Shown: positions 1 through 64,000, counted from the first letter of the stretch. The stretch: 64,000 nucleotides of DNA from Candidatus Poriferihabitaceae bacterium (GCA_965213885.1 OZ243919.1:1052692-1116691); one strand, 5' to 3'. The notes: a model not told the origin generated them from the sequence alone. Numbers and translations: made by a program.

Positions 1-330
1 GTCGCAGTCTCCGCAACCAGGAAACGATTCAGGAACGCGATCTAATTTTTTCCCTGGCACTCAATCGCTATTCCGGCGGAGTGACTGGAACGGGTCTACC
101 CGCACAAGTCCGAGAGAGTCAATATGGAGGTCATTGGATACACATCCATACTCTCTTCCCCTGATGGCCGACGGCAATATTTCATGAATTCATCGATCCG
201 TGCTGATTCCGTCATGATTAATCAAATCTGTCCCCTAAATACGCATGAACTGTCACTTTTCTTGGGGTGGGCAATGTGAAAATATTGAACTCTTGCTACA
301 ACCACTTGTGTTGATCAGGAGGGTAAGAAA

Positions 331-3712: not shown

Positions 3713-3716
3713 GCAT

Positions 3717-5581: not shown

Positions 5582-6546
5582 AATCCGAGATTTCCCTGAA
5601 GGTTGATGATCTCCGAACTTATTTCAAGGTTCGCAGACCCCACCTGCTTGCGGAGCAGCCAACCGTGTACGCAGTGGATGGCGTGAGCTTTGAAATCGAG
5701 TCGGGTAAGACTCTCGGCCTGGTTGGAGAAAGCGGCTGCGGAAAATCGACAACCGCTTTCTCTGTACTTCGTCTGGTTGAGCCAACTTCCGGTTCGGTGG
5801 TTCTCAAGGGGGTCGATGTCTGCCGGCTGAATGAGAATGCCCTGCGGAATTATCGCCGCCATATGCAGATCATTTTTCAGGATCCCTATTCCTCCATGAA
5901 CCCTCGAACAACCGCGGGCGAAATCATCAGGGCTCCCCTGAAAATCCTCAAAATCGGGACACCAAGAGAACAGCACGAGAGGGTGGCGGAACTGCTCAGT
6001 CTGGTGGGATTGCGTCCTGAACAAAAGAATCTTTTTCCACACCAGTTTTCGGGCGGCCAACGACAACGAATCTGTGTTGCCCGTGCACTGGCTCCGAATC
6101 CTGACTTTATCGTCTGCGACGAACCTGTTTCCGCCCTGGACGTCGCGATTCAGTCACAAATACTCAATCTGTTAGCGCGACTGCAGAGGGAGTTCGGCCT
6201 GACCTATCTGTTTATTTCTCATGATATGGCAGTTGTTCAGCATATATGCGACGAAATCGCTGTCATGTATCTGGGCAGAATCGTAGAGAGGGCGGATCGC
6301 CGATCACTCTTCCTGGATGTAAAACACCCTTATACCAAGGCGTTGCTGTCGGCTGTCCCGACAATGGGCAGGGTAACTGAACGTTCATCCACCCCCATTA
6401 GAGGAGATGTGCCTAGCCCCATGAATCCTCCGTCAGGCTGCCATTTCCATACACGATGTCGTTTTGCAGAGAAGCGCTGCAGTGTGGAGAAGCCCGTTTT
6501 ACGGGAAGTTGTCCCCAATCATTGGGTTGCCTGCCATCTAGTCTGA
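5578..6546 (+). CDS. ABC transporter ATP-binding protein (DppF/OppF-like)
   Basis: The ATG overlaps the upstream stop. Motifs seen are Walker A GESGCGKST, signature FSGGQRQR, Walker B IVCDEPVSALD and the C-terminal HPYTKALL...C.FHTRC extension. Confidence 0.85.
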   Translation: MKSEISLKVDDLRTYFKVRRPHLLAEQPTVYAVDGVSFEIESGKTLGLVGESGCGKSTTAFSVLRLVEPTSGSVVLKGVDVCRLNENALRNYRRHMQIIFQDPYSSMNPRTTAGEIIRAPLKILKIGTPREQHERVAELLSLVGLRPEQKNLFPHQFSGGQRQRICVARALAPNPDFIVCDEPVSALDVAIQSQILNLLARLQREFGLTYLFISHDMAVVQHICDEIAVMYLGRIVERADRRSLFLDVKHPYTKALLSAVPTMGRVTERSSTPIRGDVPSPMNPPSGCHFHTRCRFAEKRCSVEKPVLREVVPNHWVACHLV

Positions 6547-6635
6547 ACCCCGGAGCACTGGGTTCGATTGATACGCTCGGGAATGGTTTGGGTGAAAATT
6601 GAGATCAAAAGCCCGGGATTCAACGCCTGCCGTTT

Positions 6636-7781
6636 CTAGCGCAGACTGCCCACAAAGGCCCGCAGGTCATCGATAAAAAGTTCCGGTTCTTCCATCGCCC
6701 CGAAATGGCCGCCGCGGGGCATCTCCGTCCACCGGTGTACATTGTAGAGCCGTTCAACATAACTGCGGGGTGGCCAGGCCAGTATTTCCTTCGGAAACAG
6801 GGCGCATCCGGTTGGCACTTCCACCCGTTTCCCTTCCGGTGACAGGGTGCGCCCCCCTTCCTCGCGTCGACCGTAGTAGATCCACGAAGCCGTGTTGAAG
6901 GTTCGGGTCACTACATAGACCATGATGTTGGTAAGCAACTCGTCTTTGGTATGTGCGCTTTCAATGTCATCCCCATCGATATCCGACCATGAATTGAATT
7001 TTTCGATAATCCACGCGGCGACACCAACCGGGCTATCCATCATTGCATAACTCAAGGTTTGCGGTCGGGTGGCCTGCTGGATTCGGTACCCGTTCTCGAT
7101 TTCCTGTTCCCGTTCAAATTTTTCCGCCCAGGCCTCTTCCTCCGCGCCCTGTGGGCCGGCCGGATGTCGCATGGTCAATATGCTGATATGAATTGCCCTG
7201 CAAGCCGGGTGTTCCAGACCCAGCCAGGACGAGATGGCGCCGCCCCAATCCCCTCCCTGTGCAACGTAGCTGTCGTAACCCAGTATCCCGGTCATCAGGG
7301 TGTTGAGGACATCCGCCATTTTACGCGGGCCATAGGGTCGTGGAGGACGGCCAGAGAAACCAAAACCCGGCAACGAGGGCGCTACAACGGTGAATGCGTC
7401 TTCTATTTTCCCGCCATGTCGTTCAGGATGCGCGAGTGGATCGATGATCTCCATAAACTCGACGATCGACCCCGGCCAGCCGTGACTGATGATCAACGGA
7501 GTCGGCGAAGGACCACTGCCGATTTTGTGAATAAAGTGAATGTCGATGCCATCGACCTGCGCCACGAACTGTGGAAAATTGTTGATCGCAGCCTCCTGTT
7601 TTCGCCAGTCGAATTCGCTAATCCAGTATGTCGCGATCTCCTGCATGTAATCCAGATTGGTGCCGTATTTCCAGCCTCCGTCGTCCGGCATCTCGTGCCA
7701 TGGGTAAGCCGCGACTTTCGCACGGATGTTGTCCAGAGTCTCGTTGGGAACGAAAACCTTGAATGGCTGAGGGGTGGTCAT
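6636..7781 (-). CDS. Epoxide hydrolase family alpha/beta hydrolase
   Basis: The ORF runs 6636-7814, and the likely start is MTTPQPF at 7781. It shows the N-terminal epoxide-hydrolase domain pattern, the HGWPGS oxyanion motif and the GGDWG nucleophile elbow. Confidence 0.75.
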   Translation of the reverse strand: MTTPQPFKVFVPNETLDNIRAKVAAYPWHEMPDDGGWKYGTNLDYMQEIATYWISEFDWRKQEAAINNFPQFVAQVDGIDIHFIHKIGSGPSPTPLIISHGWPGSIVEFMEIIDPLAHPERHGGKIEDAFTVVAPSLPGFGFSGRPPRPYGPRKMADVLNTLMTGILGYDSYVAQGGDWGGAISSWLGLEHPACRAIHISILTMRHPAGPQGAEEEAWAEKFEREQEIENGYRIQQATRPQTLSYAMMDSPVGVAAWIIEKFNSWSDIDGDDIESAHTKDELLTNIMVYVVTRTFNTASWIYYGRREEGGRTLSPEGKRVEVPTGCALFPKEILAWPPRSYVERLYNVHRWTEMPRGGHFGAMEEPELFIDDLRAFVGSLR

Positions 7782-8061
7782 GACATGAAGCCGTAAAGCA
7801 TAAATTATCTTCAATTAACGCAAAAATCTGTCGGCATCGTCGAGAGACAGATTGAAGTTTTTTGGAGGACAGAATCTGCCGGCGACACTGGGTATTCCAT
7901 CACCACTTTCGGGCTGGAGCACAGGTTGCCCGGCGCAGGATACCCTGTAAGCGTCTGGAATACCTGTTTTGATCAACGCGGGACGCCTGGCAACGGGAAT
8001 TACGGGAAGGTCCTTTCAACCAGAAAATAAGATTGCCGTCCTCGTCAAACGGTGTTTCGTT

Positions 8062-9521
8062 TTAGATCTGGCGCTTGACTTCTTCTGAAATAATTCGAAT
8101 TCCTTCCTCAAGCTTTTTCAGGGGCACAAACGCAAATCCAAGCCTGAAACTTCGCTGATCTTTTTTCAGGCTGAATCTTTCCCCGATATCGATCAGGACA
8201 CCCCGTTCACGAAGTCGCTCGCCGAGTTCTGTGGAGTTGAAACCCTTTGGCCCGGTCAGCCAAAAACAGGTGCCGCCCTTGGTCGGTGCTTTTTCAAGCA
8301 TCCCCAGGTGCTCGTTGATCGCATCATTCATGACATGCCATCGCCGCTTGTAACGCCGCTCGATGTTCCGTAAATGAGAATCGTAATAGCCGAGCTGAAA
8401 AAAAAGCGCCACTACTTCCTGCACAATCGTCGGCGCATGGCGCATGATCACGCCCCTGACTATCCTGGCCTGCCGGATAATGTCCCGATGAGCTACCATG
8501 AAACCCAGACGTAGCCCGGGGGACAGGGTCTTTGAAAGGCTGCCAACATAGATCACGCGACCGTTCTTGTCCAGTGATCTTAAGGACTGCGACCGATTGT
8601 TGAAAAAGTTCATTTCGGCCTCGTAGTCATCCTCGATGATCAAAAATTCCTTGCGACTGCCGCTTCAAGCAAATTCTTCCGACGTTGATTCGACATGGTC
8701 ACCATAGTGGGAAACTGGTGGCTGGGAGTGGTGAAAACCAGCTGGCAGTTATCGGGAATCCGCGACACGATCAAGCCATGTTTGTCAACAGGTACCCCGA
8801 CAACCTTATTTCCGGCAAGCTGAAACGCATTGCGGCCATAGGAGAATCCCGGATCTTCGATGGCAATGGGTTTCTTCTTGTGAGCAAACGTCGCGCCAAT
8901 GATATAGAGCGCATTCTGGGCCCCGAGGGTAATCAACACCTCGTCTTTGTTTATGTAAATACCGCGAGTGCTCAACAGGCGTTGTCGCAATTGCTGCAAC
9001 AAGTGCGGGCTGTCGCTTTCGACAGAGTCGTCTCTCCATGCGGGCATCTTTGTTCGCCTCAATGCAAGTCGGGTGCACTCGCGCCAGCTTTCAACCGGAA
9101 ACAGGTCAGGGTCAATCTGGTTGTAAATGAAGGGAAATGAATAGCTTTTCCAGTTCAGCGGGTTGTCGACTGGCACTAATCCCAGGGGTTTGAGCTTGAC
9201 TGGTGCAGGAATATCAGTGAGATCTTCGCGATGACCGTGCAGATCCACTTCCTGCCCCTGTTCACGGGCAATCGGATTTACGAAGTAACCGGATCGATTC
9301 TTTGCGACCAGCAATCCGAGGTCCATCAGGCGATTGTAGGCGGAAAAAACCGTGTTCCTGGATACCCCAAGCTGTTCGGCCAATTCGCGACAGGAGGGCA
9401 ACCGCTTTTCCGTCGATAGTGCTTGGCTGGTAATTGCGGAACTCAGCATCTCGCATATCTGATCGCGCAATCCCAGGCTTGATTCTTCCGGCAATACGAA
9501 CATTGGGGTTATTGAATCCAT
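8062..9521 (-). pseudogene. MocR-type (GntR HTH + aminotransferase-fold) transcriptional regulator, interrupted by a 1-nt frameshift
   Basis: Two abutting ORFs (9521-8640 and 8643-8062) lie in different frames. Together they give a full MocR architecture. The break lies in an A5 run (+ strand 8642-8646), and one extra base restores ...ARNFLIIEDDYEAE... Confidence 0.75.
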
Positions 9522-9628
9522 AACTTTTCCTCCATCAATTGATGTCTATCGGTTCATTTTCTCCGAATTCGAATCTTTCCCGATTTTGTCACTGTTGATT
9601 GCAACTGCCCCCTAGGTTCTGACAGTGA

Positions 9629-10022
9629 ATCTTTGTTGCAAATTGTAGCCATGTAGTAGGAGCCAGGCGACCACCTTATCTTCACTCAGCGAACGCGCTG
9701 GTCCTGAAGTCCCAATCGTGTTGAGCACTGATCAGTTGCCAGCCCGAATTATAGAGATTCTGGACAACGGTGTGAGAAGAGACAAATCTCTGGGTCAGTT
9801 TCATGACTTGAACCGTCACATTACTCGCTTCCTGAATCTGCTCTCCTCGTATGATAGTTCCGCCCGATTGTGTCCAAACTGAGTTGTACCGTGGACGGAT
9901 ACCGGCATTACTTCCCCATCTGAGATCCTGTAATTATGCAGCCTATCCGTTACTATTTTCCTTGGGCCGTCTCCACGGTTTCGGGGCGGGCAGCAGTGTC
10001 CAACTCGGAAAAAGAACTGAAA
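9629..10022 (-). mobile_element. IS6/IS26-family insertion sequence remnant (C-terminal third of the transposase plus one terminal repeat)
   Basis: Minus-strand translation in two frames matches IS6 transposase C-termini. One frame gives ...PRKIVTDRLHNY...FGHNRAELSYEESRFRKRVM and the other gives ...QRFVSSHTVVQNLYNSGWQLISAQHDWDFRTSAFAE*. The IS26-like inverted-repeat core TGTTGCAAA lies at 9634-9642, about 40 nt past the stop. The N-terminal two thirds are missing. Confidence 0.55.
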
Positions 10023-39025: not shown

Positions 39026-40042
39026 GTGTGGGAGTTCGACGAGTTGCATGGCGCCCTGGCGGAGACGTCGCTGGCAGCCCTGGCGGAACCTCTTGCCAGC
39101 ACTTCTCGGTCGAGTTTGTCGAGTCGCACCCACGGGGACCGGGCACGATGGCTGGCGGCCATCGGGGCCCTGCCGGAGGTTCCAGTTTCGGCGGTCCGGC
39201 TGAACGGGGATGCCGTATGTGCTGCGGCCGCACGGCCGCCGGATACCGGAACCCTGGCACAGTTGCGCCGCTCGATGCAGGTCCTGCATCCCTGGCGCAA
39301 GGGCCCGTTCGATCTGTTCGGCATGGTCATCGACGCTGAATGGCGATCCTGCATGAAATGGTCCCGGGTAGCCCCCCACCTGTCGCCGCTGGACGGGAGA
39401 GTGGTGCTGGATGTGGGTTCAGGCAACGGATATTATCTCTACAGGATGCTGGGCGCAGGTGCGTCCGCAGCCATCGGCGTAGATCCCGCGGAATTGTTCC
39501 TGGCGCAGTTTCACGCCCTCAATCGCTATCTTGGGGCATCACGGGCGGCGGTGCTGCCGCTCAGGTGCGAGGACCTGACGCCGTCGAAGGCGGGTATGGC
39601 GTTCACCGGCTTCGACACGGTGTTCTCCATGGGGGTGTACTACCATCGCCGTGAGCCCCGATCCCATCTCAGGGAACTGGCGGAATTTCTCCGACCGGGA
39701 GGCGAACTTGTCCTGGAGACGCTGGTCATCGAAGGTGATCGGGCCGCCGTCCTTGAACCGGCGGGACGTTATGCGCGCATGCGCAATGTCTGGTCCATAC
39801 CGTCTCTTCCCTTGCTGAGCGCTCAGCTGCTTGATGCAGGTTTCATCTCACCGAGGATCGTGGACGTCACCTCCACCACGGTGGCGGAACAGCGCAGTAC
39901 CCCCTGGATGAACTTCGAGTCTCTGATGGACTGCCTCGACCCGGCGGATGCCACAAGAACCGTGGAAGGTCACCCCGCCCCCGTCCGGGCCTGTATCATT
40001 GCCACCCGCATCCCCCCGGATTTCCCGTCGAATGCGTCTTGA
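39026..40042 (+). CDS. cmoB: tRNA U34 carboxymethyltransferase CmoB
   Basis: 338 aa with a GTG start. It shows ...LHPWRKGPFDLFG..IDAEWRS..KW... and VLDVGSGNGYY, and it directly follows cmoA. Confidence 0.85.
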   Translation: MWEFDELHGALAETSLAALAEPLASTSRSSLSSRTHGDRARWLAAIGALPEVPVSAVRLNGDAVCAAAARPPDTGTLAQLRRSMQVLHPWRKGPFDLFGMVIDAEWRSCMKWSRVAPHLSPLDGRVVLDVGSGNGYYLYRMLGAGASAAIGVDPAELFLAQFHALNRYLGASRAAVLPLRCEDLTPSKAGMAFTGFDTVFSMGVYYHRREPRSHLRELAEFLRPGGELVLETLVIEGDRAAVLEPAGRYARMRNVWSIPSLPLLSAQLLDAGFISPRIVDVTSTTVAEQRSTPWMNFESLMDCLDPADATRTVEGHPAPVRACIIATRIPPDFPSNAS

Positions 40043-41141
40043 CACCGACAATTACCTGCAGCTGTTCCTTGAGAACATTCCCCTGATCGACACCCGTGCG
40101 CCGGTTGAATTCGCCCGGGGTGCGTTCGAGCATGCGGTCAACCTGCCGCTCATGACCGATGCTGAACGCCACCAGGTCGGAATCCGCTACAAGGAATCGG
40201 GACAGGAAGCTGCCATCGCACTGGGTCGCGAGCTCGTGGGTCCGACGCTGCAGTCGGAACGCACCCGGCTCTGGGTGGATTTCGCAAGGCACCACCCGGA
40301 GGGCTACCTGTACTGCTTCCGGGGTGGTCTGCGGTCACGCATCACCCAGGACTGGATGGCCCAGGCGGGCGTGCACTACCCCTACATCAAGGGAGGCTAC
40401 AAGGCCATGCGTCGTTTCCTGCTGGGAGTGATGGAGCGTCTGGGCGGCGGGTTACCGCTGATTCTGGTCAGCGGTCGTACCGGGACCGGCAAGACCCGAT
40501 TGCTGGGCTCCATCCACCGGTCGTTGGACCTGGAGGGTCTGGCCAACCATCGTGGCTCCAGCTTCGGCACCATGGCGGAGTCCCAACCGACCCCGGTCAA
40601 CTTCGAGAACCGAGTCGCGGTCCGCCTGCTGAAACTGGCCCAAGAAGATGAAAGGTCACCGGTGTTCGTCGAAGGGGAAGGGCGCCTGGTGGGAAGCCTC
40701 ACGGTGCCGGACCCGCTCTGGGCGAACATGCAGCGCTCGCCGGCCCTGGTGCTGGAAGCGGATATCGAGCACAGGGTGGATATCGGAATCTCCGACTACG
40801 TGGTGGACCTGCTGGACCGGTTCCGGCAGCTGGAGCCGGGAGAGGCCGGATTTGAACGCTTCGCCGAGCGCCATCGGCAGAGTCTCTACCGCATCCGCCG
40901 ACGGCTTGGTCTGGCATCCTACGATGAGGGCCTGTCCATGCTGGAAGCCGCACTGGCCGCACACCGCGACCATGATGACCTGGAAGGTTACCGGCCGTTC
41001 GTCCGCCTGCTGCTGGAACGCTACTACGACCCCATGTACGACTACCAGCTCTCGCGGCGGCAGGGTGAAGTGCTTGCCCGGGGTGATGCTGATGCGCTCG
41101 CGAGCTGGCTGCAGCGCCGGGGCGTGACACTGGACCGGTGA
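40032..41141 (+). CDS. selU: tRNA 2-selenouridine synthase (SelU/MnmH)
   Basis: The ATG at 40032 overlaps the cmoB end by 11 nt. It has a rhodanese domain with the active-site loop CFRGGLRS and the P-loop GRTGTGKT. Confidence 0.85.
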   Translation: MRLDTDNYLQLFLENIPLIDTRAPVEFARGAFEHAVNLPLMTDAERHQVGIRYKESGQEAAIALGRELVGPTLQSERTRLWVDFARHHPEGYLYCFRGGLRSRITQDWMAQAGVHYPYIKGGYKAMRRFLLGVMERLGGGLPLILVSGRTGTGKTRLLGSIHRSLDLEGLANHRGSSFGTMAESQPTPVNFENRVAVRLLKLAQEDERSPVFVEGEGRLVGSLTVPDPLWANMQRSPALVLEADIEHRVDIGISDYVVDLLDRFRQLEPGEAGFERFAERHRQSLYRIRRRLGLASYDEGLSMLEAALAAHRDHDDLEGYRPFVRLLLERYYDPMYDYQLSRRQGEVLARGDADALASWLQRRGVTLDR

Positions 41142-43423
41142 ACGACTTGACCCCCCAGGTCCGGGATCTGGTCCTGCTGGGTGGCGGGCACAGTCACGTC
41201 ATCGTCATCCGGAGGTGGGCGGCGAATCCCGTACCCGGTGTCCGGGTCACGCTGGTTTCACCCGATGCGCTGACGCCGTATTCCGGGATGCTACCCGGCC
41301 TGGTGGCGGGACACTACAGTGTTGAGGAGACCCACATCGACCTGACTCGCCTGTGCCGCTGGGCCGGGGTCCGGTTCGTGCAGTCCGCCGCCAGCGGGGT
41401 GGATGCCGACGGCCGTCGGGTCCTGTCCGACACCAGGCCGGCCATCGAATACGACCTCCTGTCCGTGGACACCGGCGGCGCGCCTTCCCTCGCCACTGTT
41501 CCCGGCGCTGCGCAGTACGCAACCCCGGTAAAGCCTGTCCACCGGTTTCATGCACGATGGCGGGAACTGGAGGCCCGTGCCCGGGAAAGTGGGAATGCCC
41601 TCGAGATCGGCGTGGTGGGTGCCGGGGCCGGCGGATTCGAAATCCTGCTGGCGATGAACCATGCCCTGAACTCGGTGGACAATCGCCCCGTAACGGCGAC
41701 AGGACCGTTGCGTCACCGGCTGCACTGGTTCATCCGGGATACCGCGCTGGAGGATTTTCCCGCCGCGGTACGGAGAATGGCCCTCAGGGCCTGTAAACAG
41801 CGCGGCGTTCACTGTCATCACGAGTTCGACGTGACGGAGGTCCGCGCCGACGGCCTGCGGTCGGCGCGGGGCCGGGAGGTCCGGTTGGACGCCGTCGTGT
41901 GGTGCACCGAAGCCATGGCTGCCTCGTGGCCGGCGGAGTCGGGACTCGATTGCGACGAGAGGGGATTGATCCGTGTATCCGACACGCTGCAAAGCCTGTC
42001 CCACCCGGATGTTTTCGCCGCCGGCGATGCTGCAGTGCAGGTGCATCATCCGCGGCCAAGGGCGGGGGTTTTCGCCGTTCGCCAGGGTCCCGTCCTGTCA
42101 GAGAACCTGCGAAGGGCGGTCCTGGGTGAAAGGCTACGGGAATACCGGCCCCAGAAAAGGTTCCTGACCTTGCTGTCCATGGGGGACCGCAGTGCCATCG
42201 GCCGCAAGGGGCCGTTCATTGCAAAGGGAGAATGGGTCTGGCGATGGAAGCACCGGATTGATCAAGAATTCATGTTCAATTTCAGTAAATTGCCTGAATT
42301 AATGCAACAAAAATCAAAAAAGATACCATCTGCGTTACAGGCTGAACTGGTATCGGGAGGCATGCCGGACGGCATGCGCTGCGGGGGCTGCGGAGCCAAG
42401 CTGGGGGGCGATGTGCTTGCGTCCGTCATGGACGGACTGGACGTCCCGGAGCGGGATGACCTGCCGGTGGGGTTGGCGTCACGGGGGGATGTGGCCGTGA
42501 TCGATTGTGGCAGCAGGCCGCTGGCCCAGTCGGTGGATCAGGTGCGGTCGTTTATCGACGACCCCTGGCTGTTCGGCCGGATTGCAACCGTTCACGCGTT
42601 GAGTGACTTGTACGCCGCACGCAGTGTTCCCCAATCCGCCATGGTCATCGTGACCCTGCCGTGGGGGGCCGAATCCACCATGCGCAGGGAGTTGTCACAG
42701 CTGATGCAGGGCGTGACCGTGGAACTCGCCCGGGCGGGATGCGCCCTGTCCGGGGGACATACCGCCGAGGGGCTCGAAACGACTCTCGGCTTCGTGGTCA
42801 ACGGCTATTCACCCGGCGCCGATGCATCCGTTGCCGATCGTCCCCGGGCGGGAGATTGCCTGATACTGACCAAGCCCCTGGGAACCGGTGTCATCCTGGC
42901 GGCAGCGATGCGGGCCAGAGCCGCCGGCCCGGTGCTGGACACGGCTCTGGCATCGATGTTGCAGTCAAATGCCCGCGCCGCCGGGATCTTCGAGGATTAC
43001 GGCGTCAGTGCTATGACTGACGTAACCGGATTCGGCCTTGCGGGCCACCTCCTGACGCTCCTCAGGGCCTCGGGCCTGTCTTGCCACCTGCGGCCGGATG
43101 CGGTGCCGGCACTGCCGGGGACGGCAGCACTCCACGGGGAAGGAATCCGCAGCTCACTGCAGGGTGCCAATGTCCGGATGCTGCAAGGCGGTGGGAACGT
43201 GGATTCGCCTGACGCCATCCCGGGCTGGGAACTCCTGACGGATCCGCAGACCAGCGGGGGACTCCTAGCGGTCATTCCGCCCGACGCAGCCGGCGGCTGC
43301 CTTGAGGCCCTGCGCCAGTCCGGTTATGACCGGGCGGCCTGTATCGGAACGCTGGCCGACCGTGTCGACCGTGATCCCCTGATCGTCTGCGGACCGGATC
43401 CGAATACCTGCCGTTGTCCGTAG
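41138..43423 (+). CDS. selD: Fusion protein: FAD/NAD(P)-dependent pyridine nucleotide-disulfide oxidoreductase-like domain plus selenide,water dikinase SelD
   Basis: The GTG overlaps the selU stop. The N-terminal ~370 aa carry two Rossmann motifs (LLGGGHSH, VVGAGAGGFE). The C-terminal ~350 aa are SelD, with the RCGGCGAKL active-site loop (Cys form) and a PurM-like fold. Confidence 0.85.
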   Translation: MNDLTPQVRDLVLLGGGHSHVIVIRRWAANPVPGVRVTLVSPDALTPYSGMLPGLVAGHYSVEETHIDLTRLCRWAGVRFVQSAASGVDADGRRVLSDTRPAIEYDLLSVDTGGAPSLATVPGAAQYATPVKPVHRFHARWRELEARARESGNALEIGVVGAGAGGFEILLAMNHALNSVDNRPVTATGPLRHRLHWFIRDTALEDFPAAVRRMALRACKQRGVHCHHEFDVTEVRADGLRSARGREVRLDAVVWCTEAMAASWPAESGLDCDERGLIRVSDTLQSLSHPDVFAAGDAAVQVHHPRPRAGVFAVRQGPVLSENLRRAVLGERLREYRPQKRFLTLLSMGDRSAIGRKGPFIAKGEWVWRWKHRIDQEFMFNFSKLPELMQQKSKKIPSALQAELVSGGMPDGMRCGGCGAKLGGDVLASVMDGLDVPERDDLPVGLASRGDVAVIDCGSRPLAQSVDQVRSFIDDPWLFGRIATVHALSDLYAARSVPQSAMVIVTLPWGAESTMRRELSQLMQGVTVELARAGCALSGGHTAEGLETTLGFVVNGYSPGADASVADRPRAGDCLILTKPLGTGVILAAAMRARAAGPVLDTALASMLQSNARAAGIFEDYGVSAMTDVTGFGLAGHLLTLLRASGLSCHLRPDAVPALPGTAALHGEGIRSSLQGANVRMLQGGGNVDSPDAIPGWELLTDPQTSGGLLAVIPPDAAGGCLEALRQSGYDRAACIGTLADRVDRDPLIVCGPDPNTCRCP

Positions 43424-49389: not shown

Positions 49390-49399
49390 CCCCCCCCCC
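49390..49399. repeat. C10 homopolymer
   Basis: Counted directly from the sequence. It lies in a stretch without an intact ORF. Confidence 0.9.
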
Positions 49400-55799: not shown

Positions 55800-56492
55800 T
55801 TCATGCGGGAATCCTGACACTCGTGAATCCTGTCCCGGCGGCGGGATTGTCAATTTCGCGGGGCTAAGCACTGGCCTGCGGGGCGTCCGGCCGGATTCGC
55901 CACAGGGACGGGGTTTCCATGGACACCGCCAAAATCCGGCAGGTAGCATACTGCCGCCAAGGTGTGCAGGGGAATCGGGACAAGTCAGTCTCTTACACAA
56001 GTCTTTTGTAATTCAGATCAGGACCTACCGGTAGGTTTCATCTCGAGACTGTGGTTCAAAGTCGAAGGTGGTCGCTCCGGTCAGGAACGAACGGATCACC
56101 TCCACCGTCTGCAATCGTTGGCGGTGCAATTTCAAGATCATTCTCCGATGATCCTAAAATCGCCCCTTTCATGTTTCAGTCACACACCAAAATAGAGAAT
56201 TTATATGCTATAGTTAATAATAGGAGCATACTCACCACATAGAAGCAAGCCCACGTGCCTTGAACACGGATGGGAAGGCGCTGGCGGGAGGTTCTCATGA
56301 ATCACTTGCATGCGTCGGACATTCGCTGCCCCCAGTGTCCTGCACAATGGCCTTACCCTCGGGTTCAAGGTCCGCCTCTGGGTGAAGTCCCGGATGACGG
56401 ACTGGATAGCAGCGCGGTACTAAAAGCCAAGAGTCATCCACATCCTGCAAAAGCACCAGTGCTTGCAGAAGGAACGGAAGTTCCGACCACAT

Positions 56493-56514
56493 CCCCCCCC
56501 CCCCCCCCCCCCCC
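56493..56514. repeat. C22 homopolymeric tract directly abutting an in-frame ATG (56515) of the giant ORF
   Basis: Counted from the sequence as 8 + 10 + 4 consecutive C residues. Confidence 0.95.
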
Positions 56515-56604
56515 ATGCGTGCGGGCCCAGCCATAGAAGGGCGCCATCGGCCGGACAAGTCGGTCCCTGAAGCCGAATCGAGCGACGTCACCCGCTCCTT
56601 TCGT

Positions 56605-59600
56605 GTGCTCCACCGGGCACTGGCTGCAGGGGCACTCACCCTGACGCTCCTTGCGCTCCTCGCGCCCGCCGCCGAAGCCAACAAGCCCAACTGCTCCGCG
56701 TCGAGCGGTCCCTACCCAGCCCACGAGGACTGGGTGTTCACGCCCGAGAGTCTCGACGCCGGCGATACCTTCCGCCTGCTCTTCGCAACAAGCGCGACAC
56801 GCAGCGCGGACTCTGTACTCCCGTCCGTGTACAACACCTTCGTGCGCAACGCCGCCAAGGGCGGACACGGCCAGATCCCCGCAAGCTGCGGGAACAGGTT
56901 CAACGCGATCATCTCGACGCAGTACGACTCTGCGCGGTTTAACACAAGGACCAGGTCGACCGACACCGACGCACCCATCTGGTGGGTGAAGGGCGACAAG
57001 GTCGCGGACAACTACGCCGACTTCTACGACGGGTCCTGGGACAGCCGCATCGCAAGAAACGAGTACGGAACGACCCCCATCAGCGAGCAAAGGGTATGGA
57101 CCGGAAGCTTGTCGAACGGGCACCACCCCGGATCCGGCTACGCAGGGCACTTCGGCGTTGAGGTCCATCGAGGCCACCTCAAAACGGGCGATCCACTGAA
57201 CGCGGGAAGCACGAACAGCGGTGCCAAGTATCGCTTGTACGGTCTCTCGCCCATCTTCACCGTGGTGAAGGCCCCGCGGCTTTCGATTTCGCTCAACAAG
57301 ACTTCGGGGAACGAGCTGAATTCAGCGGGAGGCCATGCCACCATCTCGGTCAAGCTCGACCAGACGCGCCCCAACGACACGTCGTTCAAGATGTGCGTGA
57401 AGACCACGAGCACCGCAACGTTTCGCACGAGCACCAGCACGAACGACCGCGATTTCGACCTCTACGAGTACCTTCTCGACGCCCAAGGTCAGCTCGTTGA
57501 GCTCGCCGTCGACGCCTCGAACTGCCACACGATGACGATCAAGACGGGCGACAACCAAAACCAAGCCATTTTGGGGTTCTTCGGCGACACCCTGAAGGAA
57601 GAGAACGAGACCGTGGTGCTCGAGCTGAAGGACCCGCCGTCGGGCGTCAAGATTGCTTCCTCCGGACGCACCGCGACGTACACCATCACCAACGACGACT
57701 CCGAGCCCACCGTGACCATCACCGGCGGTGCGACGGCGTCCGAAGGCACCAACGCGACCTTCACCGTCAAATCGAGCCACGCCCCGAAGAACGCCCTCTC
57801 GGTCAAGGTGAACATCACCGAAGCCGAAGACGCCGACACCGGAAAGAACCACGTCGACGCCGACGACGAGGGCGTGCGCACGGTGACCGTCGCTGCGGGC
57901 AGCACGAGCCAGTCGTTCACGGTGCCAACGACCGAGGACTGGGTCGACGAGCCCGACGGCGTCATCACCGCGACCGTGCAGGCGGGGACCGGCTACGTCG
58001 TCGGGCAGGCCAACAAGTCCGCGCAGGTGAACGTCCAAGACGACGACACGCGCGGGTTCGTGTTCCGTCCCGCAAAGCTGAAGCTCAAGGAAGGGGGAAG
58101 CGCCACCTACACCGTGGCGCTCACCTCGCGCCCGCTCGACGAGCCCGAAGGCGTCACCGTCACGCTGACGCCCTTGGGCGACTTCACAGTGGACACCGAC
58201 ACCAGCAAGGACGGCAACCAGACGACGCTGCGCTTCGACGCCGTGGGCGGGAACCTCTGGCAGTCCGGACAGACGGTGAAGGTCACTGCGAACGAGGACG
58301 CGAACAGCACCGACGACACCACCGCCATCAACCACGAAGGGTCCGGTGCCGGTTACGGCCCACGCCCCGGCGCCGATTTCGGCGCGAGCCGAGGCATCGT
58401 AGTGACCGTCACCGACAACGACGTCCCGCACCTGGTGGTCGCGCCGACCGAGCTCAGCGTCACCGAAGGCGGCAGCTCGACCTTCACCGTGCAGCTCGGG
58501 ACGCAGCCGTCCGCCGACGGGACCCTCGCGTTCGCCTCGACGAACCCGGACATCACCTTCAACCCCGCGAGCCTCAGCTACTTCAAAAATGACAGTCACC
58601 AGACCCAGGGGTGGGACAAGGTGCGGACCGTGACCGTCCATGCCGCGAGCGACAACGACATCGGCGACGACGCAGCGACCTTGACCGTGACCGCCTCAGG
58701 GGGCGACTACGAGGGCAAGACCGCGACCATCGCCGCCACCGTCACCGACACCACCACCCCGGCGCTCGTGCTCTCGACCAGCACGCTCGCCGTCATGGAG
58801 GGCGCGAGCACCACCTACACGGTCAAGCTCGCCGCCAGGCCGACCGGGACGGTGACGGTCGCCATCGGGTCGAACAACGGCGACGTCATGGTCGATACCG
58901 ACAACGATGACACCAACGGCAACCAGAACAGGCTCACCTTCAACGCCAACGGCAGCAACCTCTGGAGCACGGCACAGACCGTGAAGGTCACTACACGCGG
59001 CGACGCCAACACCGCCAGTGAGGCCGTGACGCTCACCCACACCGCCTCGGGCGGCGGCTACGGCGCGGTCAGGAAGACGCTCTCGGGCACCGTCACCGAC
59101 GACGGCAAGAAGACCGTCGCGTTCGCCCAAACGGACTACCCCGTCATCGAGGGCAAGGGGCCGGTGACGGTCACGCTCGTCATGTCCGAAGCGCGCAGCG
59201 CGACCACCAATGTGAGGGTCTCCGCGACGCCGCTGACCGCGACGGGCAGCGGCGTGGACTACACCGGCCTGACCTTTGTCGCGACGTTTGCGGCAGGGAG
59301 CACGAGCGCAACCTTCGAAATACCGATCAGGGTGGACGACCTCCTCGAGGATGCGAACGGAGAGCGTTTCCGCGTGGACATCTACGACGGCGACTTTCCG
59401 AACGACCTCAAGAAGGTCAGACCCGACCTGGCCTACGTCACCATCTACGACGCGGCGGTCCTGTCCTTCACCCGCCCGGACACGACGAGGGTTTTCGAAG
59501 GCGGGCGGGCGCTCGAGTTCACCCTGGACGCCCGCGCGCCGTATTTCGACGAGGCCGACGGGCACGGCTTTGCCCATGTACGGCTGTCGGGTCGGGCAAG

Positions 59601-62600
59601 CTCGCACAGCGACTACCGCATCGAGTACTGGTACCCCGGGCTCGGGTGGACCAGCTCGACGCGCTTCATCGCAATCCCGGCGGGCACGCCGAGCGCCCGC
59701 GTACGCGTGACGGCGCTCGAGGACGGGCGCAAGGAGGGAAGCGAGACGGCAACCCTCACCCTGATCGAGCTCCCGAAGGTCTACCGCGACACGGGGCAAC
59801 CGTTCTACCGCGCCGGCACCCCCCGCACGGTGAGCTTCACCGTGGCCGACCGCGAGACGGTCGCGCCGCGATTGACGTCGGTTGCGCATCACGACCCGGC
59901 TGCATCGACGGCCGTCTCTCCGGCAAGCCTCACCTGGCGAGTCACCTTCAACGAGGAGGTGCACGCCGTCGATGCGAGCGACTTCACGCTGACGGGCACC
60001 AGCGCGACGCTCGCCGTGGCGCGGGTCGCGGGCACGCATGCGTTCGACGTCACCGCCTCGGGCGGGAACCTCGGGCGCATCACCGGCGGACAGGTCACGC
60101 TCGGCCTCGCGCCCGACAACGACATCACCGACGGCAGCGGCAACGCGTTCACCCGGTGGAACGAATTCACGAGCACGTACTGGGTCCACGACGGCACCAC
60201 ACCGCCGCCGCCCGGCCCAACGGTGACCGTCGAGGCACAATTGCCGGGCGTCGCCGTGACGGAGGGCCAACGGGTGAGCTTCCTGTTGCCGGCGAGCCCG
60301 ACACCCACGGCAGACTTCCCCGTCAATATCACGGTGACGCAGAGCGGCAACGTGGTATCTGCCGAAACTCTGAGCACGAATCAGACAACCATACGGCGCG
60401 CATTCGGCGCCGGAGCCGTCGGCCCGAAAACACAAGACGACTCCATCGACGAGCCAGATGGCAGCGTGACGGTGACGCTCGACAGCGGCACCGGCTACAC
60501 CGTGGGCAGCCCGTCCTCGGCAACGATTGTGGTCAGGGACAACGACCCGACGGTGGTGAGTCTCACTCGTACGGGCACCGGCGCGGTGACCGAAGGCGGC
60601 ACCGTCGAGCTTGACGTGACGCTCGGCCGCGCGCTCGTCGCCGGCGAGACCATCGATGTGCCGCTCGCCATCGGCGGGACGGGTGTCACCACCGGCGACT
60701 GGAGCTTAGGCAAGAAGTCGGGGGCGACCAACACGGGTGTCGCGCTCCTCGATGCGGGCACCACGACCCCGAAGGTGCGCTTCGAGGGCGCGGGCGCGCA
60801 AACGGCGACGCTCGAGCTCACCGTGACGGCGGACGGCACGGCGGAGGGCACCGAAACCTTCACCGTCGCGCTCGGCAGCGACAGCACTTTCGACGACTCG
60901 AGCCTCGGCACCAACGTCGGCGGCGGCGCCGACCCCCACGGCACGGACAACACCTTCGACGTGACGGTGAACGACGGCGCCGCCCCGCCGCCGGGCACGC
61001 CCGCGGTCGGGTTCGCCTCCGCCACCTCGAGCGCGGCCGAGGATGCCGGCACGCACAACGTGACGCTCGACCTCGCCCCCGCGGCGCCCTCGGGCGGCCT
61101 TGACATTGCCTACGCCGTCACCGGCACGGCGACAGCGGGCAGCGGCAACGACTTCACCATCGCGGGCTCGGGAACCCTCAGCGTCGCGGCCGGAGCGACC
61201 ACGGCGACTATCCCGGTTGCCATCATCGACGACAGCACCGACGACGACGCCGAGACGGTGGTGCTGACGCTGAACCCGGGCACGGGCTACACGCTCGGCG
61301 GCACGACGGTCCATACGCTCACCATTGCCGACAACGACGACCCCATCACGCCGGCGGCTTGCGTGTCGGCGCAGCTGTTGAGCGACGTCCAGGGCTATGC
61401 GGGGGAGAACCGGCCGAACTCGCCGGACCATGTCCCGCGCTGGAGCCGGGTGCTCGCCGCCTTCGGGGAGAGCAACAGCTACAGCAACAACCCGATGACC
61501 GTTGCCGAGGCGCAGGCGCAGGCGGCTCGCGGCCTTCAGCGCTGGGTGCCGGTGGTGACCGCGCTCGAATGCCTCGAGGGCACGACGCCGCCGGCTGTCC
61601 CCCAAGTCACGGTGCAGGGCGGCAGCGCCGTCACCGAGGGCGGCAATGCGGTGTTCACCGTCAGCGCGAGCTCAAGTCCCGCGGCGGCCCTCACGGTGAC
61701 GCTCACCGTCGCCGACGACGCCAGCAGCGATTTCTTGAGCGCCAGTGACCAGGGGGAGAAGACGGTCTCCATCGCCAGTGGCCAGACCTCTGCCACCCTG
61801 ACGGTCCCGACGCAGAACGACAGCACCGACGAAGCGAACGGCAGCGTGACGGCCACCGTCTCGAGCGGCACCGGCTACACCGTCGGGAGCCCCTCCACCG
61901 CCACGGTGGCGGTGAGTGACAACGACCCGACGCCGCAAGGAACACCGGTCGTTCGCATCGCCGCGGGCACGGGCATCACCGAAGGCGCCAGCGCCGAGTT
62001 CACGCTCACAGCGTCCCCAACACCGACCGCGTCCATCACCGTCAATGTCGCCGTCGCGCAGAGCGGGGCTTTCGCAACCAGCGGACAGACGGGGACGCGC
62101 ACCGTCACCATCGGAGCAGGCGGCACCGCCACCCTCACCGTCGCCACCGACAATGATGGTACCGACGAGACGAATGGCAGCATCACCGCCACCGTGCAGA
62201 CGGGCACCGGCTACACCGCGCACGGGACGCAAAACGTAGCCACCGTGGCAGTGACCGACGACGACGTACCGGTGGTCAGAGTCACCGGCGGCGCCGGCAT
62301 CACCGAAGGGGGAACCGCAGCGTTCACCCTCACGGCAAGCCCGACGCCGGCAACCGCCATTACCATCAATGTCGCCATCACGCAGAGCGGCGACTTCGCA
62401 GGCGACGGACAGACGGTGACACGCACCGTTACCATCGGAACAGGCGGTACCGGCACCGTCAACGTCACGACCGTCAATGACACCGCCGACGAGCCGGATG
62501 GCACCATCACCGCGACCGTGCAGACGGGCACCGGCTACACGGTCGCGGCGGCGCCGAACCATGCGGCGAGCGTCACTGTCGCCGACGACGACGCAACGAC

Positions 62601-64000
62601 CGGGGTTCCGACGATCTCGATTGCCGATGCCACCCTGAACGAGAACGAACGCTTGGGTTGGTTCACGGTACGCTTGAGCAAGGCGACGGACCAGGACGTC
62701 CGCTTCGCCTACGCGACGCGCGAATCGACGCCGGTCTCGGCAACGGCGAACAGGGACTATAGCCACGTCCCGCGCGCGTGGCGCATAGGAAGCCGGATCA
62801 GGGCCGGCGAAACGTTCACAGAAATCCGTATCGGCATTCGCGACGACAGCCACGACGAGAATCCGGAGACGTTCGAGGTCGAGCTCTTCGACGCGTTCAT
62901 GTACCGCTCGGGCCAGAAGGTGCCGGTGTCGATTACGGACGACGTCGCGGTCGGCACCATCACCAACGACGACCCGATGCCGGCGGCGTGGCTGTCGCGG
63001 TTCGGCCGGACGGTGGCGGAGCAGGCGCTGGACGGGATCTCGGGCCGGCTGTCGGCCCCGCGCACGGCGGGCACCGAAGGCACGTTCGGGGGCATTTCCC
63101 TGCAGCCCCGGGATTCCGGCGATGGGGATTCGGGTCATTCGGATCAGTCTGATCCATTCCATTCATTCGACCCATTCAGCCCATTCAATCAATCCGACCC
63201 TGTTCCTTATGGCTTCGGCATCGACGGGATTGACACGAATGAAGGAGTCGACGGCATGGCGCCCCCTGGCATCCGGACCATGACGCTGCAGGAACTGCTG
63301 CTGGGCAGTCATTTCACGGCGACGGGCCCCGGGGATTCCTCGGGGGGCAGCCTGGCACTGTGGGGCCGTGCGGCGCACTCGAGCTTCGATGGCAGGGAGG
63401 GGACGTTCTCGCTGGACGGAGAGGCGACCACGGCGCTGCTGGGGACCGACTATGCGCGGGGCAAGTGGCTGGTGGGCCTGGCGCTGCTGCAGAGCGGCGG
63501 GGAAGGCGGTTACCGGGATACGGAGACCGGGTCCCGCGCCGCGTCGCAGCTCTGTACGGATGCCGATCATGACATGGACCCGCAGACGAGGGAGGTTCTG
63601 TGCGGCGGTGCGGTCCGGGAGGGCGATGGAACGGTGGAGTCGTCGCTGACGGCGGCGGTTCCCTATGGCGCGATCCGGGTATCGGAGAGGCTGAAGCTCT
63701 GGGGCGCGCTGGGTTACGGCACGGGCGAAGTGACCCTCAAGCCGGAGGTGGGCGGCTCGCTTCGCTCCGACCTCACCTGGACGATGGCGTCGGCGGGCCT
63801 TCGGGGGGATGTGATCGCGCTGCCGGCACAGGGATCCGGTCCGGCCCTGGTGATCACCTCGGATGCACTGTGGTCGCGGACGGAGTCGGACCGGACCAGC
63901 GAACTGGCAGCGTCGGACTCTGATGTAACCCGCCTGCGACTCGGTCTGGAGGGCAGCTGGCGCATCGCCACCGAGGGCGGAGGTCATGTCACGCCGAAGG
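56605..64000 (+). CDS. Giant surface protein, 5' part only: Sec signal peptide, lectin-like head, ~15 Calx-beta/Ig-like modules, and an autotransporter (type Va) linker plus beta-barrel. It continues past the window end.
   Basis: This ORF is not in the supplied track. Frame +1 has no stop from 56410 to 64000, and I checked the register at 57001, 57991, 58981, 60001, 61021, 62041, 63001 and 63961. The frame shows strong third-position G/C bias. The GTG at 56605 gives MLHRALAAGALTLTLLALLAPAAEA|NKP, and an alternative ATG at 56515 lies 30 codons upstream. Repeated modules end in xDNDD/DDD, with recurring TGYTVG and bona fide Calx-beta stretches. The C-terminal part, AWLSRFGRTVAEQALD...SLALWGRAAHSSFDGREG.FSLDGE..TALLGTDYA..KWLVGLAL, is typical of an autotransporter beta-domain. 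Confidence 0.85.
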   Translation, partial: MLHRALAAGALTLTLLALLAPAAEANKPNCSASSGPYPAHEDWVFTPESLDAGDTFRLLFATSATRSADSVLPSVYNTFVRNAAKGGHGQIPASCGNRFNAIISTQYDSARFNTRTRSTDTDAPIWWVKGDKVADNYADFYDGSWDSRIARNEYGTTPISEQRVWTGSLSNGHHPGSGYAGHFGVEVHRGHLKTGDPLNAGSTNSGAKYRLYGLSPIFTVVKAPRLSISLNKTSGNELNSAGGHATISVKLDQTRPNDTSFKMCVKTTSTATFRTSTSTNDRDFDLYEYLLDAQGQLVELAVDASNCHTMTIKTGDNQNQAILGFFGDTLKEENETVVLELKDPPSGVKIASSGRTATYTITNDDSEPTVTITGGATASEGTNATFTVKSSHAPKNALSVKVNITEAEDADTGKNHVDADDEGVRTVTVAAGSTSQSFTVPTTEDWVDEPDGVITATVQAGTGYVVGQANKSAQVNVQDDDTRGFVFRPAKLKLKEGGSATYTVALTSRPLDEPEGVTVTLTPLGDFTVDTDTSKDGNQTTLRFDAVGGNLWQSGQTVKVTANEDANSTDDTTAINHEGSGAGYGPRPGADFGASRGIVVTVTDNDVPHLVVAPTELSVTEGGSSTFTVQLGTQPSADGTLAFASTNPDITFNPASLSYFKNDSHQTQGWDKVRTVTVHAASDNDIGDDAATLTVTASGGDYEGKTATIAATVTDTTTPALVLSTSTLAVMEGASTTYTVKLAARPTGTVTVAIGSNNGDVMVDTDNDDTNGNQNRLTFNANGSNLWSTAQTVKVTTRGDANTASEAVTLTHTASGGGYGAVRKTLSGTVTDDGKKTVAFAQTDYPVIEGKGPVTVTLVMSEARSATTNVRVSATPLTATGSGVDYTGLTFVATFAAGSTSATFEIPIRVDDLLEDANGERFRVDIYDGDFPNDLKKVRPDLAYVTIYDAAVLSFTRPDTTRVFEGGRALEFTLDARAPYFDEADGHGFAHVRLSGRASSHSDYRIEYWYPGLGWTSSTRFIAIPAGTPSARVRVTALEDGRKEGSETATLTLIELPKVYRDTGQPFYRAGTPRTVSFTVADRETVAPRLTSVAHHDPAASTAVSPASLTWRVTFNEEVHAVDASDFTLTGTSATLAVARVAGTHAFDVTASGGNLGRITGGQVTLGLAPDNDITDGSGNAFTRWNEFTSTYWVHDGTTPPPPGPTVTVEAQLPGVAVTEGQRVSFLLPASPTPTADFPVNITVTQSGNVVSAETLSTNQTTIRRAFGAGAVGPKTQDDSIDEPDGSVTVTLDSGTGYTVGSPSSATIVVRDNDPTVVSLTRTGTGAVTEGGTVELDVTLGRALVAGETIDVPLAIGGTGVTTGDWSLGKKSGATNTGVALLDAGTTTPKVRFEGAGAQTATLELTVTADGTAEGTETFTVALGSDSTFDDSSLGTNVGGGADPHGTDNTFDVTVNDGAAPPPGTPAVGFASATSSAAEDAGTHNVTLDLAPAAPSGGLDIAYAVTGTATAGSGNDFTIAGSGTLSVAAGATTATIPVAIIDDSTDDDAETVVLTLNPGTGYTLGGTTVHTLTIADNDDPITPAACVSAQLLSDVQGYAGENRPNSPDHVPRWSRVLAAFGESNSYSNNPMTVAEAQAQAARGLQRWVPVVTALECLEGTTPPAVPQVTVQGGSAVTEGGNAVFTVSASSSPAAALTVTLTVADDASSDFLSASDQGEKTVSIASGQTSATLTVPTQNDSTDEANGSVTATVSSGTGYTVGSPSTATVAVSDNDPTPQGTPVVRIAAGTGITEGASAEFTLTASPTPTASITVNVAVAQSGAFATSGQTGTRTVTIGAGGTATLTVATDNDGTDETNGSITATVQTGTGYTAHGTQNVATVAVTDDDVPVVRVTGGAGITEGGTAAFTLTASPTPATAITINVAITQSGDFAGDGQTVTRTVTIGTGGTGTVNVTTVNDTADEPDGTITATVQTGTGYTVAAAPNHAASVTVADDDATTGVPTISIADATLNENERLGWFTVRLSKATDQDVRFAYATRESTPVSATANRDYSHVPRAWRIGSRIRAGETFTEIRIGIRDDSHDENPETFEVELFDAFMYRSGQKVPVSITDDVAVGTITNDDPMPAAWLSRFGRTVAEQALDGISGRLSAPRTAGTEGTFGGISLQPRDSGDGDSGHSDQSDPFHSFDPFSPFNQSDPVPYGFGIDGIDTNEGVDGMAPPGIRTMTLQELLLGSHFTATGPGDSSGGSLALWGRAAHSSFDGREGTFSLDGEATTALLGTDYARGKWLVGLALLQSGGEGGYRDTETGSRAASQLCTDADHDMDPQTREVLCGGAVREGDGTVESSLTAAVPYGAIRVSERLKLWGALGYGTGEVTLKPEVGGSLRSDLTWTMASAGLRGDVIALPAQGSGPALVITSDALWSRTESDRTSELAASDSDVTRLRLGLEGSWRIATEGGGHVTPK
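61600..62595 (+). repeat. Three tandem ~330-340-bp coding repeats (about 110-aa modules) inside the giant ORF
   Basis: The units span about 61600-61926, 61927-62265 and 62266-62592. They share ...GITEGG.A.FTLTASPTP...I.VNVA..QSG.F...GQT.TRTVTIG.GGT.T..V.T.ND..DE..G.ITATVQTGTGYT.... Units 2 and 3 are the most alike, by eye roughly three quarters of nucleotides identical. Confidence 0.7.

Follow-up and report, generated by a model that had tools for sequence, protein, structure and literature searches.

Here, we analysed one stretch of DNA of 64,000 nucleotides, called the window throughout and used for all coordinates unless another sequence is named, and found at its right end a giant plus-strand gene for a putative surface adhesin, which the window end cuts short. 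Along the product lie a signal peptide, a globular head, a stalk of bead-like modules, and a helix, linker and barrel at the C-terminus, while a tract of cytosines stands directly before the start. These features, with the repeat hidden Markov model (HMM), Pfam or AlphaFold2 evidence on which they rest (the latter with its predicted local distance difference test, pLDDT), are as follows.

56493..56514, plus strand: tract of 22 cytosines (C22) directly 5' of the ATG, non-coding, a candidate slipped-strand switch
56515..64000, plus strand: giant gene, cut by the window end (open frame, gene call on contig L001, complete product P0241, GC content at third codon positions, GC3, of 0.86)
56605..56679, plus strand: Sec-type signal peptide, amino acids (aa) 31-55 (VLHRALAAGALTLTLLALLAPAAEA, then NK), read by eye from the translation
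56680..57282, plus strand: N-terminal head, aa 56-256, predicted endostatin-like (C-type-lectin-like) fold (AlphaFold2, Foldseek)
57283..58050, plus strand: modules 1-2, divergent Calx-beta-like (repeat HMM 108 and 117 bits; weak LapA match in Pfam)
58051..59103, plus strand: modules 3-5, a second module type with a weak likeness to LapA domains (PF20579, 27.1 bits over the three together)
59104..59460, plus strand: module 6, Calx-beta (PF03160, 46.7 bits, cutoff 27)
59461..59859, plus strand: module 7, Calx-beta-like (repeat HMM 63.8 bits; no Pfam match)
59860..60210, plus strand: module 8, immunoglobulin (Ig)-like, weakly Big_5-like (PF13205, 17.6 bits, E 0.0064, below the cutoff)
60211..60993, plus strand: modules 9-10, Calx-beta-like (repeat HMM 103 and 75 bits; module 10 with a partial PF03160 match of 17 bits)
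60994..61341, plus strand: module 11, Calx-beta (PF03160, 32.8 bits)
61342..61593, plus strand: module 12, an 84-aa non-beta insert with two Cys, aa 1610-1693, recurrent in the family
61594..62601, plus strand: modules 13-15, LapA/Calx-beta-like beta-sandwiches (repeat HMM 102-120 bits)
62602..62976, plus strand: module 16, Calx-beta (PF03160, 30.7 bits)
62983..63054, plus strand: conserved amphipathic helix AAWLSRFGRTVAEQALDGISGRLS, candidate alpha-linker (AlphaFold2 helix at residues 4-27 of the C-terminal model, pLDDT ~90)
63118..63285, plus strand: acidic low-complexity linker, predicted disordered (pLDDT <50, model residues 49-104)
63286..64000, plus strand: first ~55% of an outer-membrane beta-barrel domain, the remainder lying beyond the window

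Translation of the window shows frame +1 to be free of stops from 56410 to 64000, a run of 2,530 codons, as an earlier reading of the window (the original prediction) had reported. The ATG at 56515 is the start picked by the gene caller on L001, a 9.2-kb contig (ENA ERZ25070917) that was found via the neighbouring aminotransferase, is 97.8% identical to the window and ends within the gene. Querying a protein collection with the whole open frame yielded full-length homologues, among them a complete product, P0241, which is 2,680 aa long, is encoded on a 3.56-Mb contig and is 100% identical across the part that lies in the window. The length of P0241 indicates that the gene spans 56515 to about 64557, some 185 codons past the window end; the stop that the original prediction proposed to find by extending the contig is thus placed through the protein rather than through genomic extension. 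The last bases of the window have no exact match in GTDB genomes. About 17 full-length orthologues share 67-84% identity with the gene.

The original track of open reading frames (ORFs) lists minus-strand ORFs in this region, and no Shine-Dalgarno sequence is visible ahead of either ATG 56515 or GTG 56605; both points would suit the alternative that the minus-strand ORFs are the real genes, the long frame being a relic without function or an artefact of assembly. However, these ORFs lie in the exact antisense frame, their GC content at first codon positions (0.79-0.92) equals the GC3 of the plus frame, and they have no Pfam match. They are antisense shadows, and real minus-strand genes can be ruled out. 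The 2,530 stop-free codons in frame with a GC3 of 0.86, the Pfam domains, the thousands of homologues and the full-length orthologues all stand on the side of the giant gene, so that the alternative has next to no probability and is effectively refuted; the gene is real, as was claimed at the outset. In the gene and upstream of it, Rfam at its gathering threshold and Tandem Repeats Finder gave no match, and scanning the gap upstream for promoters and terminators yielded weak consensus matches alone, on which we do not rely.

The Sec signal peptide was recognised where the original prediction had placed it. Judged by eye, it has a basic n-region, a hydrophobic core of 17 residues and an A-E-A cleavage motif. 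The segment of aa 31-55 is kept in the orthologues, whereas the called N-terminal residues that precede it are not, and GTG 56605 offers an alternative start; the true start may therefore be either ATG 56515 or GTG 56605.

The head comprises ~200 aa and carries the family signature Y-x-D-F-Y-D-G-x-W. Its AlphaFold2 model has a pLDDT of 90.7 and a predicted template-modelling score of 0.86, and when it was compared with the PDB by Foldseek, the top five matches were all endostatin (1dy1, 1dy2, 1koe, 1dy0 and 1bnl), with E-values from 1.8e-6 to 4.4e-5, a probability of 1.00 and template-modelling scores (TM) of 0.67-0.71 when normalised by target. C-type lectins come next, at E>0.6. In its model, the head thus has an endostatin-like fold, and it superposes on endostatin (the NC1 of collagens XVIII/XV) although the identity is only 13-17% and the endostatin cysteine pattern is not kept. 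The sequence searches gave a different picture. Across the head alignment (A1, 55 homologues), no member matched any Pfam family at E<=1, including Endostatin (PF06482) and DUF1554 (PF07588); NCBIfam gave no match for the head, and the head profile found no endostatin chain among PDB sequences, returning spurious matches alone. When aligned by hhalign with human endostatin, using a sequence that was checked against 1BNL, the head gave an E-value of 0.049 over 96 columns with the conserved motifs in register. Accordingly, of the tentative endostatin, C-type-lectin or DUF1554-type assignment made earlier, the fold is borne out by the structural matches, while membership of DUF1554 is rejected, as none of the 55 members matches it, and membership of the Endostatin family finds no support there either.

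Endostatin binds laminin, fibronectin and other components of the extracellular matrix. Among bacteria, the Len proteins of Leptospira are exposed at the surface and predicted to fold like endostatin; they bind laminin, fibronectin and factor H (PMC2063517). The Len proteins are small lipoproteins, in contrast to the head described here, which would sit at the tip of a giant stalk, and the two are compared here by description.

The stalk modules span aa 257-2154 and were delimited with a repeat HMM that started from the three clear-cut Calx-beta units and was then refined by iteration over the protein itself. The resulting segmentation gives 16 units, close to the 15 or so estimated earlier: 14 Calx-beta/LapA-like beta-sandwiches, one Ig-like module and the 84-aa non-beta insert. 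PF03160 scores 105.9 bits on the whole protein. When Pfam was scanned module by module, the Calx-beta gathering score of 27 was passed in three of the 16 units (modules 6, 11 and 16), exactly those that the original prediction had named, while the other 11 beta-sandwich modules are tied to Calx-beta solely via the self-built HMM and are LapA-like or divergent. The bead nature of the stalk is therefore well founded, and its description as a Calx-beta stalk holds at the Pfam cutoff for those three units only. Modules 2-5 are weakly LapA-like in Pfam, module 13 lies right at the PF20579 threshold (27.3 bits, cutoff 27), and the remaining beta-sandwich modules escape Pfam detection. The second module type, described earlier as having three copies, is real and corresponds to modules 3-5, and the Ig-like unit was found again as module 8, which does not fit the Calx repeat HMM. 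Module 12 has no match in Pfam or NCBIfam; it occurs as one copy in the orthologues, where it is 75-95% conserved, and as one or two copies in many paralogues. Most modules close with acidic NDD, DDD or DNDP motifs, and the domain type together with these acidic junctions suggests that the stalk may bind calcium. The negative result from Tandem Repeats Finder implies that the modules are not recent tandem copies at the DNA level.

After the stalk, the AlphaFold2 model of the C-terminal 527 aa (pLDDT 77) shows, in order, the helix AAWLSRFGRTVAEQALDGISGRL, a short hairpin, a disordered acidic spacer of ~55 residues and ~18 long antiparallel strands across residues 125-525. No motif of the family is conserved more strongly than the helix, the acidic linker has no nucleotide homology to the orthologues, and the barrel domain comprises ~420 aa. 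The autotransporter linker and barrel proposed originally were supported as a family relationship. With the full C-terminus, TIGR01414 scores 19.2 bits, over its cutoff of 16, whereas PF03797 scores 21.3 bits, under its gathering score of 26, and covers the first ~230 residues (profile positions 2-208). The truncated C-terminus of the window alone gave no autotransporter match in Pfam or NCBIfam, so that the HMM check came out negative for the window copy, mixed for the full-length protein and positive for some of its homologues: PF03797 was found at E<=1e-3 in six of 51 relatives (best 6.9e-13), it reaches 36.3 bits in P0010 (72% identity to the window), and several relatives carry the NCBI name 'autotransporter outer membrane beta-barrel domain-containing protein'. 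The protein ends in ...GFEMTVRW and its relatives in ...ARW, so that the aromatic last residue of a beta-signal is present. By target-normalised TM, the best PDB matches of the C-terminal model are the beta-domains of BrkA (0.62) and EspP (0.51), while large barrels such as TonB-dependent receptors match at a low TM of ~0.3. We conclude from these sequence models and the structural model that the C-terminus is probably a divergent autotransporter-type translocator.

The predicted strands exceed the canonical 12, and the barrel is probably larger, judging from the model. The count of ~18 comes from a single AlphaFold2 model and is provisional; with the modest TM, this makes the translocation route itself a presumed one. 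It is here that another explanation must be weighed, in which the C-terminus belongs to a new class of larger, ~18-stranded translocators or anchors rather than to the type Va barrels, either as a distinct type V-like subclass or as a mere anchor, with export by the beta-barrel assembly machinery (BAM), the translocation and assembly module (TAM) or another route. The ~18 long strands across 400 residues, a barrel region ~135 residues longer than the barrel portion of TIGR01414, the restriction of PF03797 to the first ~230 residues, and TM values of 0.51-0.62 to 12-stranded autotransporter barrels all speak for this explanation, as do the 'long-type' autotransporter barrel sequences of unresolved structure reported by Celik et al. 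(PMC3419190). On the other hand, the sequence relation to autotransporter barrel models is real, the strand count depends on one model of pLDDT 77 without three-dimensional inspection, and no other barrel class fits better by target-normalised TM. We therefore give the new class distinctly less than an even chance and keep the divergent autotransporter-type translocator as the preferred assignment.

The head belongs to a very large family. A profile search covering 1.84 billion representative proteins returned 6,732 clusters at E<=1e-3, of which 2,302 reach E<=1e-30, and many of the proteins carry multiple copies. The signature YxDFYDGxW was confirmed in 497 stretches, and the metagenome-assembled genomes that bear it belong to Gamma- and Alphaproteobacteria, Nitrospirota, Acidimicrobiia, Chloroflexota, Acidobacteriota, Thermodesulfobacteriota and sponge cyanobacteria. 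Many of them have sponge-derived names, e.g., Poriferisodalis and Synechococcus spongiarum. The closest head in GTDB genomes, at 94%, lies on a 'Candidatus Poriferihabitaceae' chromosome (Gammaproteobacteria, Arenicellales), a lineage whose sole mention that we found in the literature is a sponge genome note. SecD, SecF and GlmS of the window fall into 90%-identity clusters with proteins of metagenome-assembled 'Gammaproteobacteria bacterium' records.

We tallied the architecture of 84 head-bearing ORFs from 80 sampled loci, with taxon labels taken from the deposited records. The plan of head, stalk and barrel recurs in 36 of the 84, all of them diderm, which indicates that this architecture is common in sponge symbionts and not unique to the window; one alphaproteobacterial genome carries at least eight genes with head and barrel. 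In monoderm lineages, heads occur without a barrel, with up to 14 heads per protein. Relatives also combine the head with cadherin-like, fn3, He_PIG and SWM repeats. At four loci (L072, L061, L065 and L069), ORFs stay open through the whole 20.5-kb locus (>6,800 codons) and contain multiple heads and no barrel; the locus-long ORFs hold 14 heads in a Bryobacterales genome and 2-4 in Acidimicrobiia. A separate case is P0001 (L002 10001-11770), a remnant of 589 aa that consists of the end of a Calx-beta unit followed by helix, linker and barrel. It adjoins a DDE transposase and a reverse transcriptase gene, and a stray Calx-beta fragment lies downstream. By its appearance, P0001 is a family member of the same metagenome that has undergone decay or rearrangement.

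The original prediction had suggested a separate ancestry of the gene from spot GC counts. Our measurements give 67.4% GC for the gene (~65% in the earlier counts), 62-64% for the neighbouring genes, ~61-62% around secD, where ~57% had been stated in error, and 50-54% for the first 10 kb, where the ABC operon had been put at ~48%. The GC excess of the gene is partly one of amino-acid composition (GC at second codon positions 0.55 vs 0.47, with Thr, Ala and Gly together accounting for 36% of the residues) and partly one of GC3 (0.86 vs 0.77). High GC alone was thus rejected as proof of foreign origin.

Stronger support than GC comes from nucleotide identity. Positions 56602-63047 share 89.8% identity with the gene of the Poriferihabitaceae chromosome, and with genes in other genomes the identity is 88.2% and 79.6% (two Paracoccaceae genomes), 86.6% (an Alphaproteobacteria genome) and 85.5% (a Rhodospirillales genome); the similarity begins at the signal peptide, and none of the genes that flank the gene in the window is present in the compared orthologue loci. 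Among these loci, the gene stays at 67-71% GC while the GC of the flanks ranges from 48 to 66%. At the amino-acid level, identity forms a regional mosaic, with 80-95% in the stalk, ~54% in the head in most orthologues and 52-73% in the barrel; the head is 94% identical only in P0242. Since the passenger DNA is 80-90% identical between Gamma- and Alphaproteobacteria in the absence of flank synteny, horizontal transfer is implied, and the earlier claim of separate ancestry is upheld on this firmer ground. Taken together, the comparison of sequences indicates recent cross-class transfer, with heads and barrels exchanged on a conserved stalk. The order of conservation is also the reverse of that in usual autotransporters: when 56602-63999 is compared with L003-L008, the stalk (80-95% aa identity) exceeds the barrel (52-73%) and the linker (42-59%).

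Directly before the called start lies the C22 tract, one of two homopolymers of at least 9 nt in the window, and it is non-coding because no in-frame start precedes it. The other homopolymer is a C10 at 49390-49399, in the gap between a dimethylglycine-dehydrogenase-like gene and glmS. On L001, the same site holds a C12 (4568-4579) with identical flanks, a difference of 10 nt between sequences that are 97.8% identical, and on L003 a C16 (9524-9539) lies ~300 nt upstream of the start of the Poriferihabitaceae orthologue. Paralogues in another gammaproteobacterial genome have tracts of C26 (L011 9744-9769), C27 (L031 9714-9740) and C25 (L034 9720-9744), each just upstream of a GGGAGG-ATG and each the sole homopolymer of at least 9 nt in its 20-kb locus, while the alphaproteobacterial paralogue loci have no such tract. 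The tract is therefore a candidate phase-variation switch, as judged from these lengths and positions. The 5' regions of the L011, L031 and L034 paralogues, which come from one genome, are near-identical, except that L011 is without a 13-nt duplication (GCCGGCCGTCGAT) that is present in L031 and L034 just past the Shine-Dalgarno-ATG (~9790-9830). As a consequence, the ATG of L011 is out of frame with the main ORF, and this may represent a second on/off difference between the paralogues.

From these results, we consider it likely that the 2,680-aa product is a fibrillar adhesin anchored in the outer membrane of a gammaproteobacterial sponge symbiont, and the movement of the gene between unrelated sponge symbionts makes it a strong candidate for a host-attachment factor. 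After Sec export, the BAM would insert the barrel into the outer membrane and the passenger would be threaded out with its C-terminus first. Bead-by-bead folding, stabilised by the ~10 mM calcium of seawater, would drive and rectify the export, as proposed for inverse autotransporters. The head would emerge last and so come to lie at the far end of the stalk, at a distance of tens of nanometres from the cell, where by analogy with endostatin and the Len proteins it may bind a ligand of the host or of the matrix within the mesohyl of the sponge. The gene would circulate among sponge symbionts as a mosaic of a conserved stalk with exchangeable heads and barrels, and its expression in this lineage would probably be varied via the hypermutable poly-C beside the start codon.

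Several observations weigh against this account. The link between head and endostatin exists at the fold level alone, given the failure of Pfam and PDB sequence searches and the hhalign E-value of 0.049; PF03797 stays under its gathering score even with the full C-terminus; ~18 strands are predicted where 12 are canonical, and autotransporter barrels are matched at a TM of only 0.5-0.6; calcium binding is read from domain type and acidic junctions; no Shine-Dalgarno sequence precedes either start; and the differences in poly-C length could partly be long-read homopolymer error.

The function itself allows a second explanation, in which the main role is cohesion between bacteria in biofilms or calcium-dependent self-association of the LapA or Ag43 type rather than host recognition. 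Calx-beta/LapA-like repeats are typical of biofilm adhesins (PMC7616799), and genomes may carry many paralogues, at least eight in one alphaproteobacterial genome, both of which would agree with such a role. Nevertheless, the head family is almost wholly confined to sponge-associated genomes of many phyla, its fold is that of an animal extracellular-matrix protein, and its heads have diverged (54%) on a conserved stalk (80-95%), as would be expected for diversification facing a ligand. We judge cohesion as the main role to be improbable and favour attachment to the host.

Calx-beta proteins are reported to be enriched in sponge symbionts as compared to their free-living relatives (PMC11706023), and the sponge Aggregation Factor is itself rich in Calx-beta domains (PMC5400394), which permits a speculative reading as mimicry. 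In its boldest form, the head would be a 'symbiosis domain' without a Pfam model, spread by horizontal gene transfer across at least eight phyla that dwell in sponges; carried by Calx-beta stalks, it would engage with or imitate the host's own matrix and adhesion system so that symbionts are retained and not eaten, with export in proteobacteria by a new ~18-strand branch of type V and poly-C switching in this lineage. We regard this whole chain as unlikely and put it forward as conjecture.

It is an open question how sponges tell the symbionts that live in them apart from the bacteria that they eat, and the locus provides a concrete candidate, whose merits are a distal domain with the fold of an animal extracellular-matrix protein, thousands of clusters in unrelated phyla, and diverged heads on a shared stalk. 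For secretion biology, it would represent a widespread natural autotransporter-like barrel, predicted to have more than 12 strands, with a bead passenger of >2,100 aa, and it is thus of interest both for the passage of such proteins through the outer membrane and for display technology. Contingency-locus regulation by the poly-C tract would be a rare case among uncultured mutualists. In the literature, we found no description of the head, stalk and barrel plan or of an endostatin-like domain in sponge symbionts, which agrees with the view of the original prediction that the architecture is uncharacterised; it is no isolated case, being common in these symbionts.

Elsewhere in the window, positions 1-10000 have 50-54% GC as compared to ~62% in the remainder and contain genes for a peptide-type ABC transporter (substrate-binding protein 331-1917, ATPase 4436-5581) and an epoxide-hydrolase-like ORF (6636-7814); by their composition, these first ~10 kb may form an island of their own. 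At 39026-43423, tRNA-modification and selenium genes follow one another; judged by eye from the translations, they are a cmoB-like gene (39026-40042), a tRNA 2-selenouridine synthase-like gene (39948-41141) and a fusion of 761 aa between an FAD oxidoreductase and a selenide water dikinase (41138-43423).

Among known systems, the type Va autotransporters (AIDA-I/Ag43, BrkA and EspP) share the barrel sequence models that match the family, and BrkA and EspP provide the best-fitting barrels. They differ in the passenger, which in type Va is a beta-helix and here consists of beta-sandwich beads with a globular, lectin-fold tip and no evident autochaperone. No Pfam match to pertactin, AIDA or beta-helix families was found in the protein. 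The type Va barrel has 12 strands with a helix in the pore, whereas ~18 strands are predicted here and the disordered spacer of ~55 aa parts the helix from the barrel. The sponge-symbiont eukaryote-like proteins (with Calx-beta, cadherin, fn3 or ankyrin domains) share the ecological setting; the head family, for which Pfam has no model, is invisible to the surveys of such proteins, as these count Pfam domains.

Inverse autotransporters (type Ve, such as intimin and invasin) are alike in having a rod of tandem Ig-like beads, a C-type-lectin-like tip and an outer-membrane barrel, and bead-by-bead folding is thought to drive their export. Their polarity is opposite, with an N-terminal barrel and a C-terminal tip as compared to the C-terminal barrel and N-terminal tip found here, and no intimin or invasin Pfam domain was detected in the protein beyond one sub-threshold match to Invasin_D3. 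The RTX adhesins of the type 1 secretion system (T1SS; LapA, MpIBP and SiiE) are alike in a Calx-beta/LapA/BIg stalk of >2,000 aa that projects ligand-binding modules. These adhesins are without a Sec signal peptide and have C-terminal RTX repeats with a T1SS signal and an N-terminal plug, whereas the present protein has a signal peptide and a barrel and no match to RTX/HemolysinCabind, so that membership of this group is rejected. On balance, the protein appears to work most like an autotransporter adhesin, with a passenger that resembles those of type Ve, in opposite polarity, and the stalks of LapA-type adhesins.

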